A stretch of 64,000 nt of DNA from the IMG/VR virus record IMGVR_UViG_3300005253_000015, positions 47,457 to 111,456 of that record; one strand, written 5' to 3'. Source of the DNA: a virus. The notes below the pieces were generated by a model. That model was not told the DNA's origin and made no database searches. It worked only from the letters and a program-made list of their open reading frames with translations. Positions 5,901-48,717 of this stretch are shown here, piece after piece (within the stretch, counting starts at the first letter, position 1; each line of letters begins with the position of its first letter). A program made the translations under genes and the position numbers.

Positions 5901-6411
5901 TTTAAAACAATCTGGTATATTATTAGAAGGGTCAATTGGAAATGCAATAACATCAAATATTATTGATGGAGTATCTGTTAACTTTGGTACGGATGTCAAT
6001 GGGATATCATTAACTTCCGTATCGACTGATAATATTATTGCGAACAATCGAATACTTGATATGGCTAATGCGGGAGCTGGAGATGGTTATGGAATAATTA
6101 TAGCTGCGGGATGTAATAATAATGTTATATCTGGAAATGTAATTACGAGTTGTGATACTAACTTGTCTGATGCGGGGACTGGAACTATATTATTTGGCGA
6201 TGATACTGCCTACGGAGCTGGTTGGAACGGGGACTTAGGCACTCCGACCAAGAATGTTATATATGACCAATTTGTAGCTACTTTAGCTGCTGCTGTTGCT
6301 TTAATATCTGATACTGCTTATGCGGCAAGTTGGGATGGAGTCACTACAATTGCTCCGAGTAAGAATGCTGTATATGATAAAATACAAGCTCTTATTGCTG
6401 TATGGGGTTAA
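2950..6411 (+). CDS. Large beta-helix (pectin lyase/NosD-like) spike or adhesin with three tandem beta-helix modules
   Basis: Three caps (ELQEAIDNIGTDAGTIFI, ELQDAIDSIGSSAGTIYI, HIQDAVDSIAGKAGTIII), Asn-ladder GIY/ISGN rungs, two C-terminal APSKNAVYDK-type modules. Confidence 0.8.
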   Translation: MAGKGSKQLVRELINFYKVNRGGYPYEIIYKLIQLYQVIEDVYSVSTVIELQEAIDNIGTDAGTIFIASGTYDVTTTIDIDNCGSLVIYGHGDNTILKAADGITIFNITCVASCLIKTLKLDITNYTGDTQAVLINETNNNIVGFEDVSILGAAANGIGIEVQSDNCYIDQCNILQMKTGIYLNGAEKTKITGTLSGLHVNYGLHLNQADFSIITGNSFTANTSYGIYIYNSDYCIISNTGCTSNLTGMYSDISNYNTISSCLSNSNSENGIFITQGNYNTISSNTLNNNDSNIAGNTAGLYITNNSDFNTITANSINNNNNSGAGTAYGIYIATADCDENVVASNNANGNDVDYQDSGTSTTVIYYVQNSDELQDAIDSIGSSAGTIYINSSFTVSTTIDIDGGGSYLIEGEGSNTVLTTGIDIKCLNVDLARQCILRNFRIDASAYTAAGVALEIIDVNENNNDLVILDNVSITGDGTNGYGIELNSNNCRIENCEIDNISIGINILSTNNIISGNNVNNCNTYGIQISSANTNNVTTNIVDSNTTGIYLSSSDYVLVSGNSVNTNTENGIELTGSDYTNISGNSCIGNDSSTANPQAGMYISTDSNNNSIIGNTIINNNNAGAGIGYGVYIGTATCDENIVRSNNISGNDTQWGDTGTNTQIEYFCLTEGHIQDAVDSIAGKAGTIIIGEVTIAITTGITVDNATAKIRIIGKGQPSILQPTIGITVFTFTNAYELHLEAFYIDMDNYTADTTKAIFNNGANCLRQTYEDITFEGTADGIAIYNSGDSITVNNCYFNNVFNCIYITGSVVAFKITGNEFWTIRDSSVYIDYGEQGVIANNIADATGGKPVIDVIRGKYISISNNQIITGGSTATNGSSIQITGAVASSDIQIVGNTIRSTNSSGTTNSMVYMSGTVSRITISSNVIISYTNSDDSWGIIIEDATVIDCTITGNSIYAFGGIKVVNADNMVISGNKITGNTSLKQSGILLEGSIGNAITSNIIDGVSVNFGTDVNGISLTSVSTDNIIANNRILDMANAGAGDGYGIIIAAGCNNNVISGNVITSCDTNLSDAGTGTILFGDDTAYGAGWNGDLGTPTKNVIYDQFVATLAAAVALISDTAYAASWDGVTTIAPSKNAVYDKIQALIAVWG

Positions 6412-6462
6412 GAGTTATATTTATTAATTTAATATCTATTTTATAATATATAAAACTAGGTT
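6311..6462 (+). repeat. Left arm of inverted repeat (partner 14007..14158)
   Basis: 6358..6462 matches the reverse complement of 14007..14111 at 103/105 nt; the further ~47 nt differ mostly at synonymous sites. Confidence 0.95.
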
Positions 6463-6468
6463 GAAAAT

Positions 6469-7389
6469 ATGAAGAAAATAGAGTTTAAAAGACAGTTTTT
6501 TATAAAAGATTTATTCATACCTGAAAGAGTTATTAATTGTTTTAATTGTATTGAATTTGAATCTTATCAAATATTTAGTTATTGTATTGAGAATGATTTG
6601 TTTATAATCCCAGAGAATGGGTTTATATTTATACCAATAAAGAGTATATCTGATTATAAAAGTATGGTTAAGATATTTAACGAAACTAATATATGTAATA
6701 ATAGCTATTTATATTTAATAATAGAAGAACAATCCCTTCTTGATGCGGTACTTTCCACTATTGTAGATAAAAGGTTTAGTATTTTAATCACTAAAGATTT
6801 AAAAATAGATTTTGTTAAGTACTGGAATAATACAATTGGAAAAGAATGGATTTCTAAAAACAGAATCATTAAAAAGATAAAAATAGACTATCCTAATTAT
6901 GATAGACAAATTAATGAAATGATTAGTATATTCAATGAGGAATTTATAAGATTTTTCTTATTAGATTTTGATTATGTATCATTTGAAAAGATAAAAATAG
7001 AAGAGATACACAAACTAAAATTCTGGATACGTAATTTTATTGGCTGGACAAAATTAAAAGATGTTGATTCAATAGAAATCATATCAACTCCATTTGTTAG
7101 AAAGATTTTTGTTTCTGATGAGTTGGTCTTATATATGGATAATAAGAAAAAAGACATATGGTCATTTGATTTAATGTTATATTTAAAAGACGATGGAGAA
7201 AGTATGCCAATGAGAGAGCTCAATCTTCTTAGGAAATATATTGACTTTGTACCAAATGCTATGTACACAGAATCTAAAATAACAAATTGGTTTTTAATGG
7301 ATTATGCTCAATGTAAAGAAATTCAGGGAAGTTTAAATGAAATACCATTAATGATGGGATTAATAAATAGGTGGTTATATGATTTTTAA
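6469..7389 (+). CDS. Putative inactive radical-SAM-like partner (no CxxxCxxC)
   Basis: Translationally coupled to the rSAM gene; alternating beta/alpha pattern and RKIFVSDELVLY resemble an rSAM barrel end and SPASM hairpin; inference. Confidence 0.45.
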   Translation: MKKIEFKRQFFIKDLFIPERVINCFNCIEFESYQIFSYCIENDLFIIPENGFIFIPIKSISDYKSMVKIFNETNICNNSYLYLIIEEQSLLDAVLSTIVDKRFSILITKDLKIDFVKYWNNTIGKEWISKNRIIKKIKIDYPNYDRQINEMISIFNEEFIRFFLLDFDYVSFEKIKIEEIHKLKFWIRNFIGWTKLKDVDSIEIISTPFVRKIFVSDELVLYMDNKKKDIWSFDLMLYLKDDGESMPMRELNLLRKYIDFVPNAMYTESKITNWFLMDYAQCKEIQGSLNEIPLMMGLINRWLYDF

Positions 7390-8554
7390 TGTTGTGTGTC
7401 CAGATATTTTGATTTCAACAAATTGTAATATGAGATGTAAGTATTGTTTTGAGAAGGATAAAATTAACGAGGTTATGGATGAAGAAAGAATATTAGAATA
7501 TTATTCACATAATCCCTGTACAGGAACATTTCCTATTGGTGGTGAACCTTTTCTAAATTTAGATTTACTCTTCAAAATAATGGATACAGTAGAAAATAAT
7601 AAAATTATACAAGAGAAAAGAAAAAAAACGTTATTACAGAATTTAAAATGTGTTATTACTAATGGAACTTTAATTAAACAAAACATACAGAAGATTAAGG
7701 ATTATGGATTAATATTACAGATAAGTTTCGATGGTTCTAAAAAAGTTCATGATACTTATAGGGTTTTTCCTAATGGAAAGGGAACGTATGATAAAATCAT
7801 TGAAGGATTAGAACTTTGCGTAAAAGAAGGAATTGAATGGTCTATTCATGGTGTTGTAGCTAAAGATACTATTAAATATTTCTATGATACGTTTGTATGG
7901 TTTTTTGAGATATATAAAAAATACAAAGAATTAGATATAGCAATAGATTTTATGAAGAATAACGTATTTCAAGTAATATTCGAACAAGATTATTCTGATA
8001 AAGATGTTGATGAACTAGTCAGACAGTTTCATAAAATTGCTGAATGGATTTATTCAAGAGATTATATGACTATTAAACAAAAAGACCAATTATTTCATAA
8101 CTTCTTAGAAAGACGTGGTGGTGTTTGTTCAGCTGGAACAACATTAATAGCTTTTGATAATAATTTAGATATGTTTCCATGTCATAGACTTGCTGTTGTA
8201 CCAGAGAAAGAAAATTATTACCTAGGAAATGCTATGGATATTAAGACTATTAAAAATTTCAAACAATATAACTCTTACTATAATATTGGGAGAGGTTATA
8301 AATACATGTATTCAGCTATACAACATAACCACGATTACAAAGACAAGGAGAGTTTGAGATGGTTTATGTGGTGTCCTGCTACAAATTTACAAACATCTGA
8401 AAATGTTTATTATCAGAATGCTAAATATAATGTGATGTTTGTTGAAGTAAATAGAATGGTTAGAGCACTTAAGAAAATATATTATCAAAATAGTGATTTA
8501 ATAAAAGAAAAGGATAATGCCAATAAGCTCAGGAAGCCCGATACTAGCAAGTGA
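7379..8554 (+). CDS. Radical SAM peptide/protein maturase with Twitch/partial SPASM domain
   Basis: CNMRCKYC, GGEPFL, ITNGTLI, ISFDGSKKVHD.YR, CSAG...FPCHRL, WCPATN. Confidence 0.93.
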   Translation: MIFNVVCPDILISTNCNMRCKYCFEKDKINEVMDEERILEYYSHNPCTGTFPIGGEPFLNLDLLFKIMDTVENNKIIQEKRKKTLLQNLKCVITNGTLIKQNIQKIKDYGLILQISFDGSKKVHDTYRVFPNGKGTYDKIIEGLELCVKEGIEWSIHGVVAKDTIKYFYDTFVWFFEIYKKYKELDIAIDFMKNNVFQVIFEQDYSDKDVDELVRQFHKIAEWIYSRDYMTIKQKDQLFHNFLERRGGVCSAGTTLIAFDNNLDMFPCHRLAVVPEKENYYLGNAMDIKTIKNFKQYNSYYNIGRGYKYMYSAIQHNHDYKDKESLRWFMWCPATNLQTSENVYYQNAKYNVMFVEVNRMVRALKKIYYQNSDLIKEKDNANKLRKPDTSK

Positions 8555-9293
8555 TGTAAATGCTATTATCGCTAAGATAAATTCAGAGGAAAATAATAGA
8601 ACTGGGTTAGGTCTGTCTGATTTACCAGATATGATTGTTAGTAATCCTTGTTTGGCTTCAGACCACGATTCTTGGAGAACTCGTAATGATGCTATTAATG
8701 CTTTTCATTGTTATTGTGAAGCAGATGGAGGGCGTGATGCTGGTGATACTACTAAGACAGGTACAACATTAGGTCTAACTGCTCCTAATGTTACTTCTGG
8801 TAATTCAATGTTAGCTTCTCAACTTACAACTTTAGAAACAGATATAGATAATTTAGTAGCTCAATGTGATTGTGATACTTATGTTTGTAGTTGTGTAGGT
8901 AATTGTACTACTGTTTGTACTTGTAATACAAATGTATGTACTTGTGTAGGTAATTGTACTAGTGTCTGTTCTTGTAATACTAATGTTTGTACTTGTGTTT
9001 CCCAATGTGGTTGTAATACTAATGTATGTACTTGTGTAAGTCAAGGGTGTGCCTGTAATACTATTAGAACACCTGAATGTCTTGATTGGACATTCATATG
9101 TGGTTGCCAAAGTCAGGGGTGTAGTTGTAATCAATTATGTACTTGCGTAAATCAAGGCTGTGGTTGTAATCAATTGTGTACATGTGTAAGCAATGTGATT
9201 GCACAGTGTACTTGTAATCAATTGTGTACATGTGTAAGTAATGTGATTGCACAGTGTACTTGTAATAAAGTCTGTGGGTGTGAATATAACTAA
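8517..9293 (+). CDS. Cys-rich CxC-repeat protein, probable radical SAM target and possible virion fibre
   Basis: 39 Cys in residues 117-255 (18 CxC plus 3 single); Cys-poor leader with three xxxLASxxxxxxxxIN-like segments; overlaps the rSAM 3' end. Confidence 0.85.
   Translation: MPISSGSPILASDVNAIIAKINSEENNRTGLGLSDLPDMIVSNPCLASDHDSWRTRNDAINAFHCYCEADGGRDAGDTTKTGTTLGLTAPNVTSGNSMLASQLTTLETDIDNLVAQCDCDTYVCSCVGNCTTVCTCNTNVCTCVGNCTSVCSCNTNVCTCVSQCGCNTNVCTCVSQGCACNTIRTPECLDWTFICGCQSQGCSCNQLCTCVNQGCGCNQLCTCVSNVIAQCTCNQLCTCVSNVIAQCTCNKVCGCEYN
8892..8993 (+). repeat. 51-bp tandem duplication in the N-proximal arm of the Cys ladder
   Basis: TGTGTAGGTAATTGTACTA... at 8892 and 8943 (CVGNCTxVCxCNTNVCT twice). 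Confidence 0.85.
9165..9260 (+). repeat. 48-bp tandem duplication in the C-proximal arm of the Cys ladder
   Basis: TGTAATCAATTGTGTACATGTGTAAG(C/T)AATGTGATTGCACAGTGTACT twice, one mismatch. Confidence 0.92.
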
Positions 9294-9709
9294 TGGTAGA
9301 TAAAGAAACTTATTGGAAGAAAGTTAATTTTATAGTAGATACTTCCATCTTTATTAGAAACGGAGCTTGTAATCGTTGTGGTAAATGTTGTTATGCGTAT
9401 GATGAAGAACATCCCCCAGAAGAGGGAATAAAAGTTCCATGTACTAAATTAAGTTATGATGGTGCTTTAGCAATATGTGGAATTCAAGAAAATAAATATC
9501 AAATCTGTAAAGATAATCCGATTTATCCTACACCATGTATGGTTTCAGAAGCTGTTGATACTTGTGGATATTCTTGGGTAGTTGATAATAGTTTAACAAA
9601 AACAAAAGCATTGGATAAGTTTAATATTATATGTGATGTTTGTCATAGAAAAGAACCATGTACTTATTACGATAAAATAGTTAATGAAATAAATGAGGTG
9701 TGTAAATAA
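9293..9709 (+). CDS. YkgJ/CxxCxxCC family putative Fe-S or Zn-binding protein
   Basis: CNRCGKCC...PCTKL...CGIQENKYQICKDNP pattern; extra CDVCHRKEPC; TAATG coupling to the Cys-rich gene. Confidence 0.75.
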   Translation: MVDKETYWKKVNFIVDTSIFIRNGACNRCGKCCYAYDEEHPPEEGIKVPCTKLSYDGALAICGIQENKYQICKDNPIYPTPCMVSEAVDTCGYSWVVDNSLTKTKALDKFNIICDVCHRKEPCTYYDKIVNEINEVCK

Positions 9710-13999: not shown

Positions 14000-14006
14000 T
14001 ATTTTT

Positions 14007-14158
14007 AACCTAGTTTTATATATTATAAAATAGATATTAAATTAATAAATATAACTATTAACCCCATACAGCAATAAGAGCTTGTATTTTATCATAAACA
14101 GCATTCTTACTGGGAGCGATTGTAGTCACCCCATTCCAAGAGGCAGCATAAGCAGTAT
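14007..14158 (-). repeat. Right arm of inverted repeat (partner 6311..6462)
   Basis: Includes the fibre C-terminal codons, the stop and the intergenic region. Confidence 0.95.
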
Positions 14159-16952
14159 TAGAAGGAGCAGTATGTAGAGCAGTAACTTGTGCTGCTGTTA
14201 AGTGTTGTTCATTAACATTTCCATTGGGAAGTGTAATACTATCGTGTGTTAAATCTCCCCCTACAGTAGCAGCATGGTCTCTTGCCGCAATATCAACTCC
14301 GTCTACAGTTCCACTAACAGTTATATTACCAGTTATATCTAGACTTGCTACTCCAGCACCACTATTATTAATCGAAAAAACAGTAGCACCAGCATTCACC
14401 ATGTCTATAGATATACTCCCAGTAGTTGCAAAAGCAAAAGCTCCACCATTGCTATTAATACCATCAAATTGTAATGTATCTCCATCATGAACATGAGCTA
14501 CGGGGGCTGGTTGTGCTTGAAAGCTTGGGGCTGCTGCGACACCATTCCCAATCAGTATTGTTGCTGCTGCTCCAGTCGCTATTTCAGTCATAACACCAGC
14601 TCCATTAGTACAATATACCTTCCAATTATTAACTGCTGTAGGCATATTTGTGATACTAAGAGCAGATACATCAACGCCATCAACAGTCTCAGCTCCAGCC
14701 ATCGTAATATTAACGCCATTCATTTGTAGACCACCTGTTATTACTAAGGCATTAGCTTCTATATAAGCATGTGCCTCTGCGTCAGTATATTTTTGACCAA
14801 AAGCCATAGCATCTTGAGCCGCAGAACCATTACCAAGACCAGTTATTTTAGAAGTTCCCATAACGATTGGAATACCCATTGTTAATTCAGTGGCAGTCAT
14901 AGTCATTTTAGCAGAATTATTAATTCTAAAAACAACACTTTGACCAGTAGCAGCATTCAATAAAGTAAGTCCAGTAGCATTTTGTGCTAAAGCATAATTA
15001 GTTCCAGATAACATATCTCTATGACTAAAAACCATCCAATCAGCAGTCGTACTTCCTAATGCTGCTCTTCCAAAAGTAAAGGTTAAATCCTCATCGGCAG
15101 AAGTAATAACTTGAGTGCCGTGAAGGGTCATACCAGCCGAGTTGATTAGCGGAGTGTAATTATCCCCGACAGTATAATTAGGGTCTTCCTTCTCTCCATA
15201 AGCATCTAAATAAAAATAATCAGTAGAATCTCCAAAACATTTAATATGTATTCTATTTACACCAGAAACCATATTATCATCAGTAGAGACATTATTGGCT
15301 TCTAATACATCATTTACATATATATCTTGAGTGTTATCTGCTCTCCATACTAACTGAACATGATATAAAATATTATTTGAAACAACAATAAGAGCAACCC
15401 ACGCAGCTCCGTTATAATAATCCATACTACTTGCTGTTATACGGAGGCGATTTATATAACCGACGCCTCCTTCAAAAGTATAAAACTCCCAATATTTTGT
15501 TACATCATTAGTTCCAATCCAGAATTCATGAGTTCCACTTGTAGCCTGAGTTATGCTATGATATATGGTTGGATCTTCTCCTCCAGTAGCATCATCTTGT
15601 AATCGTAATACTTTTTTATGACCTTGCCATTCATCAACAATAATACATTCTCCATCATAGAGAGTTGCTGCATCTATAAATGGTATATCTGTACCTTCCG
15701 TACCTACAGGCACATCCTTAAAATTATATGTAGCCCAGAATATTCCAGCTTCAATCCCACCTTTTATATTTCCTATGCTCTTTATATCGTTTCCATCCAT
15801 AACAATATTGCCACTCATCTGTCCGCCAGTAAGGGGTAGCATTAAGTCTGCATATTCCTTTACTGTAGTATTTGTAGGAACTTTTACATCACTGTTAGCT
15901 AATGCGGCAATATCGCCCAACGTAGTTATAGTAGCCCCAGTACCTATTTTTATACTTGATTTAACGGTTAATATTCCACCTGTGGTAAGACTCATAGCAC
16001 CATCATTTTGGGCATCATCAGAATCTCTCCAAACAAATCCTCTATCAGCATCAGGGTTCATAGTAAAGGTCATAGCCCAGTCATTAAGTCCTCCATAGGT
16101 CATAGCACTATGCATACCAATAGTATAAACACTCAAATTATATACTCTAAGTTTGTCGTAATCTGATTCGGCTCGAGTTGATATTCTATTAACATTGTTG
16201 ATATCATAAAAACCCATATCAATATCACCATTCATAGTATCCCCAACAAGTTTAAGATAAACATCTGCTGCCGCTATTGCTGCAACAGCTTCAGCATCTG
16301 TATAGACTGCATGAAGTGCAGCCACTTGAGCAGCAGAAATATGTTCATAGACAGTACCAGCATTTATATTAGCTAAGTCATTATGATTTAAATCTCCTGC
16401 TACTGTCGCAGTATGATGTGCAGTAGCAACCCCTGTATGAGTGGATATTAAAGCATCTATTGCAATATCAATAGTACCAGCGGGATTAGTATTTTGCACA
16501 ACAATTCTTGCATCTACTTCTGCATCAGTGTATTTAGCATGATGGTCTCCAGCTATTGCTTTATGTGTTGCTATTAGTGAATCTATAGCATTATCTATGG
16601 ATTGACCATCTACTATTTCTGCTATAATAATAGTTTCTACTTCTGTAGTTGTGCTATTAGCATCTATTAATATATCCATTGCAGCTATCTTGTCATAAAC
16701 AGCATTTTGACTTGGAGCATGTGTAGTGTCTCCATTCCAACCAACTCCATAGACATCATCCTCTATTAATGCTACGGCAGCAGCGGCTATTGATTCGATT
16801 TTGTCATATACAGCATTCTTGCTGGGTGCTACATCAGTAATAGCATTCCAAGCAGCAGCATATACATCATCGGATATTAATTCGTCAATAGCCTTAATTA
16901 TCTCGATGTCTACATTCTCATTTAGCATAAGTCGTCTAAAATTATTACTCAT
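14058..16952 (-). CDS. Mosaic fibre/adhesin with His-rich shaft repeats and an internal lectin-like domain
   Basis: YTDAE x3, TVDGVD x2, H(I/L)xAAQVxALH x2, YLKLVGDTMNGDI/LPLTGGQMSGNI fibre motifs, APS(K/Q)NAVYDKI x3. Confidence 0.8.
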   Translation of the reverse strand: MSNNFRRLMLNENVDIEIIKAIDELISDDVYAAAWNAITDVAPSKNAVYDKIESIAAAAVALIEDDVYGVGWNGDTTHAPSQNAVYDKIAAMDILIDANSTTTEVETIIIAEIVDGQSIDNAIDSLIATHKAIAGDHHAKYTDAEVDARIVVQNTNPAGTIDIAIDALISTHTGVATAHHTATVAGDLNHNDLANINAGTVYEHISAAQVAALHAVYTDAEAVAAIAAADVYLKLVGDTMNGDIDMGFYDINNVNRISTRAESDYDKLRVYNLSVYTIGMHSAMTYGGLNDWAMTFTMNPDADRGFVWRDSDDAQNDGAMSLTTGGILTVKSSIKIGTGATITTLGDIAALANSDVKVPTNTTVKEYADLMLPLTGGQMSGNIVMDGNDIKSIGNIKGGIEAGIFWATYNFKDVPVGTEGTDIPFIDAATLYDGECIIVDEWQGHKKVLRLQDDATGGEDPTIYHSITQATSGTHEFWIGTNDVTKYWEFYTFEGGVGYINRLRITASSMDYYNGAAWVALIVVSNNILYHVQLVWRADNTQDIYVNDVLEANNVSTDDNMVSGVNRIHIKCFGDSTDYFYLDAYGEKEDPNYTVGDNYTPLINSAGMTLHGTQVITSADEDLTFTFGRAALGSTTADWMVFSHRDMLSGTNYALAQNATGLTLLNAATGQSVVFRINNSAKMTMTATELTMGIPIVMGTSKITGLGNGSAAQDAMAFGQKYTDAEAHAYIEANALVITGGLQMNGVNITMAGAETVDGVDVSALSITNMPTAVNNWKVYCTNGAGVMTEIATGAAATILIGNGVAAAPSFQAQPAPVAHVHDGDTLQFDGINSNGGAFAFATTGSISIDMVNAGATVFSINNSGAGVASLDITGNITVSGTVDGVDIAARDHAATVGGDLTHDSITLPNGNVNEQHLTAAQVTALHTAPSNTAYAASWNGVTTIAPSKNAVYDKIQALIAVWG

Positions 16953-47379: not shown

Positions 47380-48717
47380 TTATCGCCTTACTCCACGCCC
47401 AATCCGTGCTTGTTGTTGTTTTCTTCTTTGTTCTTCTCTAAGTTTTTCATCTCTAAGCATTTTTTCTCTGGCTGCTTTATCTCTGGCTTTTTTAGCTGCG
47501 ATTGCTTTTGCTCGTGCTTGTGCTGCTCTCTTAGCCTCGTTCTGTTGTTTTGGGGTGAGTGGCGATACACCTATTGGGGGCTTTGCTCCTTGTGGCATTC
47601 TTGCTGCTGGTGGTGGTGGTTCTACTGGTATAACTCTTCCCCCTCGTACTCTTATCACTTGTGGTTTCGGTGCTGTTTCTACGACTGCTTGTTTTTTTGC
47701 TGTTTCTATTGCTTTTAATACTTGTCCAGCTCCTCCATTAATTCTAGCAGACATATTCTGAAACATTTTATTAAAATTAGATAAGAAGGCATCCATATCA
47801 GTATCAATATTAACTCCAGTAGCTTCTATTTGATTTGCTATGTTAGTGGATTTAGTTTTTATAGTATCACCAAAAGATTTAAAATTAGTTTTTAATGTAT
47901 CAAAAGCATCTCCGATTTGTTGGTATGCTTCCATCATTTCTGGTAATGCTGCCCCTGCCCCTGCTGGAGCGTTAGGTGGAGTTAGATATAATAAATATGC
48001 TACAGAATAAAAAGCATCAATCCCCATAGCAATAAAGTCTAGCCTTCTCGCATGATTAGGTATCCTTCTTGCCCAATTAGCAGATTCTATTATTGCTGGT
48101 TTTATTTCTGTTACGGCATCATTCATCTGTGTGGCAACACCTCTAATACCATCACTTAATGCTGTTGTTTTTTCTTTAATGTCAGTTCCAAATGAAATAA
48201 AATTATTTTTCATCTTATTTAACTCAGTACTTATAGTATCGGAAAGCTTCTTGCCTTGATTAGCAACTACACTAACGTCATTTCTTACACCATCACCTAC
48301 AGATATAAAAGTATCCTTCATTTTTGTTATAGGTGGCATAACATTTCTATCTACAAACCCCTTAATTTCGACCTTCATTTTAGTTAATAGGTCTGGTACT
48401 ACTACAGTATTAAGATGGTTTTCTATCTGTGCAGGGAGTGCCTTTATTTCATCTCTAGCGGCAATTATTTTATCATGTATAGTTGTTATTTCAACTTTAA
48501 GTTTTTCAAGTTTTTCGATATTTTCAGTTATACTAGCAAGATTTTTTATTATAGTAGGATTGGCATCACGTTCTTTCCATGACTCTATTGCTCCGAGCCT
48601 AGCAGAAATAGTACTTATATCTTCATATCCTGTTCGTACTCTTGTAATGATTTTTGGAGCTTGTTGATTACCCTCTTTATTATAAATAGCATTCTTAAGT
48701 TTCTCTATATAAGTCAT
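47380..48717 (-). CDS. Long helical protein with a central hydrophobic segment and basic tail
   Basis: KxxFxS(V/F)G repeats x3; FIAMGIDAFYSVAYLLYLTPPNAPAGAGAAL; Arg/Lys-rich C-terminus. Confidence 0.7.
   Translation of the reverse strand: MTYIEKLKNAIYNKEGNQQAPKIITRVRTGYEDISTISARLGAIESWKERDANPTIIKNLASITENIEKLEKLKVEITTIHDKIIAARDEIKALPAQIENHLNTVVVPDLLTKMKVEIKGFVDRNVMPPITKMKDTFISVGDGVRNDVSVVANQGKKLSDTISTELNKMKNNFISFGTDIKEKTTALSDGIRGVATQMNDAVTEIKPAIIESANWARRIPNHARRLDFIAMGIDAFYSVAYLLYLTPPNAPAGAGAALPEMMEAYQQIGDAFDTLKTNFKSFGDTIKTKSTNIANQIEATGVNIDTDMDAFLSNFNKMFQNMSARINGGAGQVLKAIETAKKQAVVETAPKPQVIRVRGGRVIPVEPPPPAARMPQGAKPPIGVSPLTPKQQNEAKRAAQARAKAIAAKKARDKAAREKMLRDEKLREEQRRKQQQARIGRGVRR

Follow-up and report, generated by a model that had tools for sequence, protein, structure and literature searches.

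Organization of the locus and of the ladder protein

The viral genome IMGVR_UViG_3300005253_000015 (IMG/VR) carries, within the 64,000 nt stretch analysed here (positions 47,457 to 111,456 of the record; hereafter the window, to whose full length all coordinates refer), a gene for a cysteine-ladder protein that directly follows a gene for a radical S-adenosylmethionine (SAM) enzyme. The ladder gene, an open reading frame (ORF) at 8517..9293 on the + strand, encodes 258 amino acids, 42 of which are cysteine, and is present in a single copy in the whole genome, the record being complete at 111,456 bp with direct terminal repeats. An N-terminal domain of 116 residues is followed by a repeat domain of 142 amino acids, in which nine CxC units (arm 1), a central loop of 14 amino acids and nine further CxC units (arm 2) succeed one another. 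This arrangement had been described by the first-pass annotation at 8865-9281, and its unit counts, spacers and coordinates were all reproduced from the ORF 8517-9293.

Arm 1 (8865..9056, + strand) spans 64 residues (117-180), with CxC units starting at residues 117, 124, 134, 141, 151, 158, 164, 171 and 178 and separated by spacers of 4, 7, 4, 7, 4, 3, 4 and 4 residues. The central loop (9057..9098, + strand; residues 181-194) reads NTIRTPECLDWTFI. Arm 2 (9099..9281, + strand) spans 61 residues (195-255), or 64 if the EYN tail is counted, with units starting at residues 195, 202, 208, 215, 221, 231, 237, 247 and 253 and spacers of 4, 3, 4, 3, 7, 3, 7 and 3; it terminates with the family-wide motif C.C[DN].VC.CE[YF]. 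Additional single cysteines occupy residues 130 and 147 (in the 7-residue spacers of arm 1) and 188 (loop). The N-terminal domain contributes a 19th CxC (HCYC, residue 65). In the ladder, N-type units (CxC-N..) alternate strictly with V-type units (CxC-V..), and this alternation stays in phase across the loop. Asn, Gln, Asp or Glu is found within three residues after the CxC in all 18 units, the window protein being an amide version (N/Q) of a ladder that is acidic (D/E) in most relatives.

Each arm contains one tandem duplication, as the first-pass annotation had observed. In arm 1 a 51-bp segment holding one N-type and one V-type unit is duplicated at 8892..8993 (+ strand; copies 46/51 identical), and in arm 2 a 48-bp segment is duplicated at 9165..9260 (+ strand; 47/48 identical). 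Both were seen by Tandem Repeats Finder, which reported a 51-bp unit present 2.5 times at 8870-8998 and a 48-bp unit present 2.1 times at 9164-9266. The duplications are independent and the two arms use different unit dialects, in agreement with the earlier claim that the arms grew separately. Duplication of a whole arm was considered as the origin of the equal arms and rejected on the same difference in dialect and on the best inter-arm DNA alignment, which covered 46 nt and was gapped. Two antisense ORFs, at 8853-9134 (- strand, 93 amino acids) and 9094-9252 (- strand, 52 amino acids), span the repeat region; these are by-products of the TGT-rich repeats and not genes.

AlphaFold2 was run on the ladder protein with a 32-row alignment. 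The N-terminal domain (residues 1-116; 8517..8864, + strand) was modelled with a local confidence score (pLDDT) of ~90 as three helices (residues 11-27, 47-62 and 100-115), and it carries the conserved motif HCYCE. Fold searches with this domain (Foldseek against PDB, BFVD and the VIA wide set) returned generic helical matches (Z <7) and uncharacterized phage proteins only.

A family of ladder proteins

Sequence searches recovered ~35 divergent relatives, every one of which originates from a metagenome or from the contig of an uncultured virus. They share an N-terminal domain of ~116 residues, with I-x-A-x-D-[IV]-N-x-I, the conserved HCYCE and a helix ending D-I-D-x-L-x-A-Q, followed by a Cys-repeat domain that starts QC[DS]C[DN]x[YF] and has the near-invariant end motif already noted for arm 2. 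The canonical unit is a hexapeptide, C-x-C-[D/N/E/Q]-x-x, as 3-residue spacers account for 479 of the ~700 internal spacers; in 89 % of the hexapeptides CxC is followed by D, N, E or Q, and the x of CxC is chiefly T, S, G or D. Repeat domains range from about 40 to 1002 residues. The longest belongs to a giant homologue, L005 (2441-5800), of about 1120 amino acids with 320 cysteines and 153 CxC units, mainly CTCDDV/CTCETV/CSCESD triplets. Its N-terminal domain and that of L006 (417 amino acids) share 83 % identity, which shows that the repeat domain can change its size threefold between close relatives. A fixed super-period of two or three units per turn was tried and rejected, as the period varies between relatives (2, 3 or 5 units).

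Comparison with these relatives changed how two elements of the ladder are to be read. The central loop, previously taken to be unique and potentially hypervariable, is neither: RTPxCLDWT[FY] is common to the window protein, P0012 and L012, the loop is partly conserved in L011, and the loops of other relatives are likewise aromatic with one or two cysteines. The 7-residue spacers of the two arms had been called unrelated in sequence, and both proved to be versions of one family module, V-[G/S/D]-N-[C/V]-x-x-x, in which Val replaces Cys in arm 2; relatives carry variants such as vsncvte, vgncvsh and vddctse. That these spacers fall exactly opposite each other is true as a description, and in this protein it exceeds chance only weakly (P=0.03 with free shuffling of spacers, 0.11 if the alternation is kept, and ~3/18 if the two long units are constrained to be neighbours in tandem). 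Because the N/V alternation keeps its phase across the loop, V-type units inevitably lie opposite V-type units once each arm has nine.

Searches of Pfam, NCBIfam and PHROGs with the ladder protein and ten relatives assigned no family, and matches of acidic relatives to MSCRAMM SD repeats were rejected as compositional. The ESM Atlas offered a lead only, in viral clusters of which 40-53 % of members carry PF27846 (radical SAM target Cxxx repeat) (cosine 0.88, template modelling score 0.47); none of 11 family members matched PF27846 in a Pfam scan, although the copy of Pfam searched may omit that model. A blastn search of the cassette against a phage collection gave no match, nor did a viral-contig scan for P0012, a relative with a foreign tail. 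No repeat-number variants were seen in sequencing-run data comprising marine-sediment contigs of the probable source sample and one identical 207-nt piece from a second study. In four relatives (P0011, at residues ~96-132, and P0010, P0038 and P0039) a second, small Cys ladder is inserted in a loop of the N-terminal domain, taking the form in P0011 of nine residues, a 15-residue aromatic loop and nine residues. An insert in such a loop must come back to its origin, and this is consistent with a module that folds back on itself.

Arm lengths are matched in about half of the family

Arm lengths were compared under a rule set before the outcome was seen, in which the Cys domain starts after the last gap of ≥30 residues and the loop is the longest inter-CxC spacer. 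Complete proteins with ≥8 CxC were counted and near-duplicates dropped, giving 23 lineages. In 10 of these the longest spacer also held the most central position of all, with arms (first:second, in residues) of 64:61 in the window protein and of 50:47, 41:41, 101:99, 145:142, 76:73 and 36:35 in others; further arms around a most-central loop measured 56:65, 67:58 and 22:27. Compared with loops assigned at random to one of the spacers, the mean arm asymmetry had P=4e-5, and an asymmetry of ≤0.05 was found in 7 proteins where 1.0 was expected. Two proteins fetched later also fitted (68:75, rank 1 of 21; 65:65, rank 1 of 18), bringing the total to 12 of 25 (P<1e-5 against loops placed at random), and post hoc examination added L011, with arms of 71:71 around an aromatic loop resembling that of the window protein, and L010, with 63:68 around a K-turn loop. 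The equality of the arms in the window protein is significant only at this family level.

In each of four sister pairs the two arms also lengthened together (+12/+10, +25/+14, +22/+27 and +446/+262). Arms that remain equal over a fourfold size range, despite separate duplications, are best explained if the two ends of the repeat domain must meet, that is, by fold-back; and if the arms do pair, a loop of 10-15 residues between them permits only an antiparallel arrangement. Judged from sequence, the comparison supports fold-back of two length-matched arms as a real trait of roughly half the family members. To this extent the proposed antiparallel hairpin is supported. We consider pairing of the arms by fold-back to be somewhat more likely than not.

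The same repeats could instead form one continuous solenoid or beta-helix, for which the disulfide-cored insect antifreeze helix offers a likeness, the central loop being a mere excursion and the arms unpaired. A hexapeptide unit, an N-type/V-type alternation that passes in phase through the loop and tandem duplications that each add a self-contained two-unit block would all suit such a fold, as would the 1002-residue domain of L005 and the very unequal arms of some relatives. A low-confidence AlphaFold3 model of CrpA, a Cys-repeat protein of Methanococcus voltae, is likewise a beta-helix (PMC13692751). However, nothing in a solenoid would require the longest loop to occupy the exact centre, as it does in 12 of the 25 lineages, with arms that are equal to within 0-3 residues, and the differing super-periods leave no evident fixed number of units per turn. 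We therefore regard a solenoid as unlikely.

A conserved radical SAM enzyme and its cluster-less partner

The gene upstream of the ladder gene (7379..8554, + strand), which overlaps the start of the latter by 38 nt, encodes a radical SAM enzyme of 391 amino acids (Pfam Radical_SAM, 1.2e-14) with one 3-Cys auxiliary-cluster motif. A radical SAM gene lies directly upstream of the ladder gene (within about 420 nt) in 14 of 14 distinct related loci with upstream DNA, in addition to the window, and ladder identity among these loci falls to 31 %. This conserved pairing suggests that the ladder is a substrate of the enzyme, and we consider it likely that it is a dedicated one. The best NCBIfam matches were to maturases that form thioethers or act on Cys-repeat peptides, led by the PapB family (4e-32) and the CXXX-repeat maturase TIGR04115 (3.5e-22) and followed by lower matches to DynA, CefB, CcpM, anSME, SCIFF and the QhpD-type TIGR03906 (5e-12). 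In an alignment of 13 sequences the only conserved cysteines were 16, 20 and 23, of the SAM cluster, and 250, 268 and 332; CX2CX5CX3C was not found in the C-terminal half of these proteins, nor was the 7-Cys motif of a two-auxiliary-cluster SPASM domain. The pattern of conservation indicates a SAM cluster and a single putative auxiliary cluster with three protein ligands, rather than a full SPASM domain.

The gene before it (6469..7389, + strand) encodes a protein of 306 amino acids that was found in 12 related loci. Its AlphaFold2 model (pLDDT 81.6) has a radical SAM/SPASM fold, and its top structural matches were all radical SAM peptide maturases: CteB (Z 14.0 over 260 amino acids), TigE (13.0), ChlB (10.4), PqqE (10.1), SkfB (9.5) and anSME (9.2). 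The Fe-S cysteine motifs are absent, with neither CxxxCxxC nor any conserved cysteine among 8 homologues. On its predicted structure this partner is a cluster-less radical SAM-fold paralogue, and perhaps serves as the substrate-holding subunit. In locus L003 the partner gene lies downstream rather than upstream, and a second, different radical SAM gene (6664-7683, 339 amino acids) is placed between the ladder and partner genes.

With a leader-like domain followed by a Cys-rich core, and with a PapB-like maturase adjacent, the locus resembles a ranthipeptide cluster, and the ladder gene could be read as encoding the precursor of a peptide made on the ribosome and modified after translation (RiPP). 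The N-terminal domain would then be the leader, and the modified core would be cleaved and released as an antimicrobial or signal. Against this, no protease or exporter was recognized in the cassette of any locus inspected, cores reach 1002 residues, the N-terminal domain is a conserved, confidently folded unit of 116 amino acids, and the gene is located in putative phage tail-fibre regions. A released peptide product is thus very improbable.

On the other side of the ladder gene, an ORF at 9293..9709 (+ strand) encodes a Cys-rich protein of 138 amino acids with the sequence CNRCGKCC (a CxxCxxCC motif) and no Pfam or NCBIfam family match. Homologues adjoin the ladder gene in L001 (two copies), L004, L005, L007, L010 and L018. 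In L001 (6948-7804) two tandem CxxCxxCC paralogues follow the ladder gene and are succeeded by three genes of 217-233 amino acids, beyond which lie ORFs taken for baseplate-like by reading of the sequence alone.

This frequent companion is one of several observations that would accord with metal binding. The tip of the T4 long tail fibre, formed by gp37, is an iron needle stapled by HxH motifs, in which the chain runs out, turns at the tip and returns, with ligands at positions i and i+2. The first-pass annotation had proposed a Cys counterpart of this structure, a hairpin with up to nine Cys4 metal sites or a crosslink ladder. Developed as a rival reading, this becomes a receptor-binding needle held by metal at those sites or at Cys-lined sites on a trimer axis, with little or no part left for the radical SAM enzyme. 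Matched arms around a central loop agree with this, as does the position of the gene amid putative spike and fibre genes, and on geometric grounds a CxC on a strand would direct both thiols to one face, so that facing CxC motifs could provide a tetrahedral site. However, an exact register was not recovered: the Cys-to-Cys mirror of the arms was no better than that of shuffled spacers (window protein, P=0.76), and unit counts are often unequal despite equal residue lengths (8 and 7 units in P0003). Kinship to gp37 found no backing either, as there is no HxH in the 258 amino acids and no detectable similarity in sequence or fold, and a metal-held hairpin leaves the conservation of the radical SAM enzyme and its partner alongside the ladder unexplained. 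Nothing in the analysis supports Cys4 metal sites in the ladder, and we judge a metal-held needle to be quite unlikely.

Genomic and environmental setting

The cassette is placed behind a gene for a beta-helix spike of 1153 amino acids, and in four independent phage contexts it lies amid putative tail-fibre, spike or baseplate-like genes. The fibre- and baseplate-like neighbours in L001, L002 and L003 were judged from ORF size and sequence motifs and not from a family match. The ladder protein is accordingly a candidate component of the virion or its fibres, and on this setting the chances of such a location are about even. A 163-nt inverted repeat (6307-6469 and 14000-14162, 92 % complementary) flanks 7.5 kb holding the whole radical SAM cassette; its arms overlie the 3' termini of a convergent pair of spike genes, of 1153 (+ strand) and 964 (- strand) amino acids, and no recombinase was seen. 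Few ORFs of the window match PHROG or Pfam, these being the beta-helix spike, an RNase H and weak tape-measure-like and nuclease matches. The virus is highly divergent, with a GC content of 30 %.

Members of the family come from anoxic settings, namely marine and estuarine sediments and an anoxic lake layer (hypolimnion). With 27 % cysteine, the CxC-xxx-CxC grammar of the ladder resembles segments of metallothioneins. Its hosts inhabit metal- and sulfide-rich sediment, where a globular, non-structural thiolate cluster might bind metal or sulfide. In addition, the operon of CrpA responds to growth on pyrite (PMC13692751). A globular cluster, however, predicts neither matched arms nor a conserved base motif, and it does not account for the linkage to putative fibre genes and to the radical SAM enzyme. 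The metallothionein models of Pfam and NCBIfam gave no match to the ladder protein, which also has a folded N-terminal domain of 116 amino acids and aromatic residues in its loop. A metallothionein-like role is the reading to which we give the least credence.

A proposed stapled rod

Taken together, the observations are best explained by an enzymatically cross-linked, fold-back rod, an overall reading to which we give about even odds. In the proposed mechanism the radical SAM enzyme (7379-8554) would act on the repeat domain together with its cluster-less partner (6469-7389). The repeat domain would turn back at the central aromatic loop, bringing the length-matched arms side by side, and its start (QCDCDTY) and end (C.CNKVCGCEY) would meet at the N-terminal domain. 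The enzyme would convert part of the cysteines to thioether (ranthionine-type) bridges to nearby Asn or Gln (Asp or Glu in relatives), and the product would be a rod, stapled covalently and not open to reduction, with a length set by tandem duplications in both arms. Covalent thioether stapling appears more likely than Cys4 metal sites because of the conserved radical SAM enzyme and the C-x-C-[D/N/E/Q]-x-x grammar; by analogy with related maturases, thioether chemistry on the ladder cysteines is about as plausible as not. As each unit offers two cysteines but a single evident acceptor, some thiols may be left over, available for contacts between the arms, for disulfides or for metal. Thioethers would withstand a reducing, sulfidic sediment and disulfides would not.

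Several findings weigh against this reading. About half of the family lacks matched arms around the longest loop. The first-pass annotation had named homologues with a conserved loop and unequal arms as a case that would refute its proposal, and such proteins exist: L012 keeps the conserved loop between arms of 115:51, and P0012, with its foreign tail, has 64:9. Arms are also unequal in P0002 (125:48), L001 (137:48) and P0009 (107:48), and L005 has 591:404 around a loop homologous to that of L006. In several unequal-arm relatives another long loop is present, perhaps as a nested side hairpin. Cysteines are mirrored residue-exactly no better than in shuffled spacers, as described above, and the two duplications differ in age (90 % versus 98 % identity), so that if they compensate each other they were not simultaneous in origin. 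AlphaFold2 gave no usable model of the ladder (pLDDT 26-50), and its low-confidence model leaves the arms unpaired. The radical SAM enzyme scores far below the cut-offs of every named family (111.7 bits versus a curated cut-off of 340 for NF047865, 79.4 versus 350 for TIGR04115 and 49.6 versus 525 for TIGR04463) and, unlike PapB, CteB and CrpC, is without a second auxiliary cluster; its chemistry could therefore differ.

In its widest form, which we offer as a tentative conjecture more likely to fail than to hold, the hypothesis states that phages of anoxic sediments make a thioether-stapled, fold-back Cys ladder as a tail-fibre-associated rod or needle of ~40 to ~1000 residues. Its duplications would be balanced by selection between the arms, and in a sulfidic habitat it would take the place of metal staples or disulfides, being non-reducible and made by a minimal radical SAM enzyme and a cluster-less paralogue. 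If true, radical chemistry would serve to harden a protein associated with the virion, which would explain how phages in reducing, sulfidic habitats stabilize extracellular proteins where disulfides fail. The matched-arm rule provides a concrete hypothesis in this respect, that of a two-armed rod of programmable length. A literature search found no relevant account of such thioether stapling in a virus.

Comparison with known systems

Enzymatic thioether stapling of a whole protein, as opposed to a short peptide, was first shown experimentally in 2026 for CrpC/CrpA of M. voltae, in which an enzyme of the TIGR04463 family introduces ranthionine cross-links, detected by mass spectrometry, on a Cys-repeat protein consisting of a leader-like N-terminal part and C-X-X-Q/D repeats (PMC13692751). 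The system described here shares with it a protein-sized substrate, a leader-like N-terminal part, a C-terminal Cys array with Q/D-type residues after Cys, an adjacently encoded radical SAM enzyme of the peptide-maturase branch and a repeat part whose structure is not confidently predictable. The enzymes differ, in that CrpC has a RiPP recognition element plus a complete SPASM domain that holds two auxiliary clusters, whereas the enzyme of the window has no N-terminal extension and three conserved C-terminal cysteines, and matches TIGR04463 over the SAM core only (2.5e-13). The repeat unit is a CxC hexapeptide here and a 17-residue motif in CrpA. Unlike CrpC/CrpA, the present system is viral, lies in a putative tail-fibre region and includes a cluster-less partner of radical SAM fold. 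Matched arms have not been reported for CrpA, and the matched-arm architecture is the new element.

The substrates of PapB (PapA, the precursor of freyrasin) and of TIGR04115 enzymes also consist of many short repeats of a Cys plus an acceptor, each thought to form one small thioether ring. PapA, however, is a short peptide of CX3D units, whereas the ladder proteins have two cysteines per unit, a folded N-terminal domain of 116 amino acids and up to 153 units. On the fold-back model the ladder would share with the gp37 tip a chain that extends, reverses at a tip loop and comes back, with i/i+2 ligand motifs on both arms, and its putative fibre-gene setting is likewise similar; it differs in having no HxH and in being accompanied by a dedicated radical SAM enzyme, for which gp37 has no need. 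In the quinohemoprotein amine dehydrogenase, the radical SAM enzyme QhpD makes several Cys-to-Asp/Glu thioethers in the gamma subunit QhpC, which is kept in the larger assembly. QhpC is a non-repetitive enzyme subunit of 80 amino acids with three cross-links, whereas the ladder is a repeat array.

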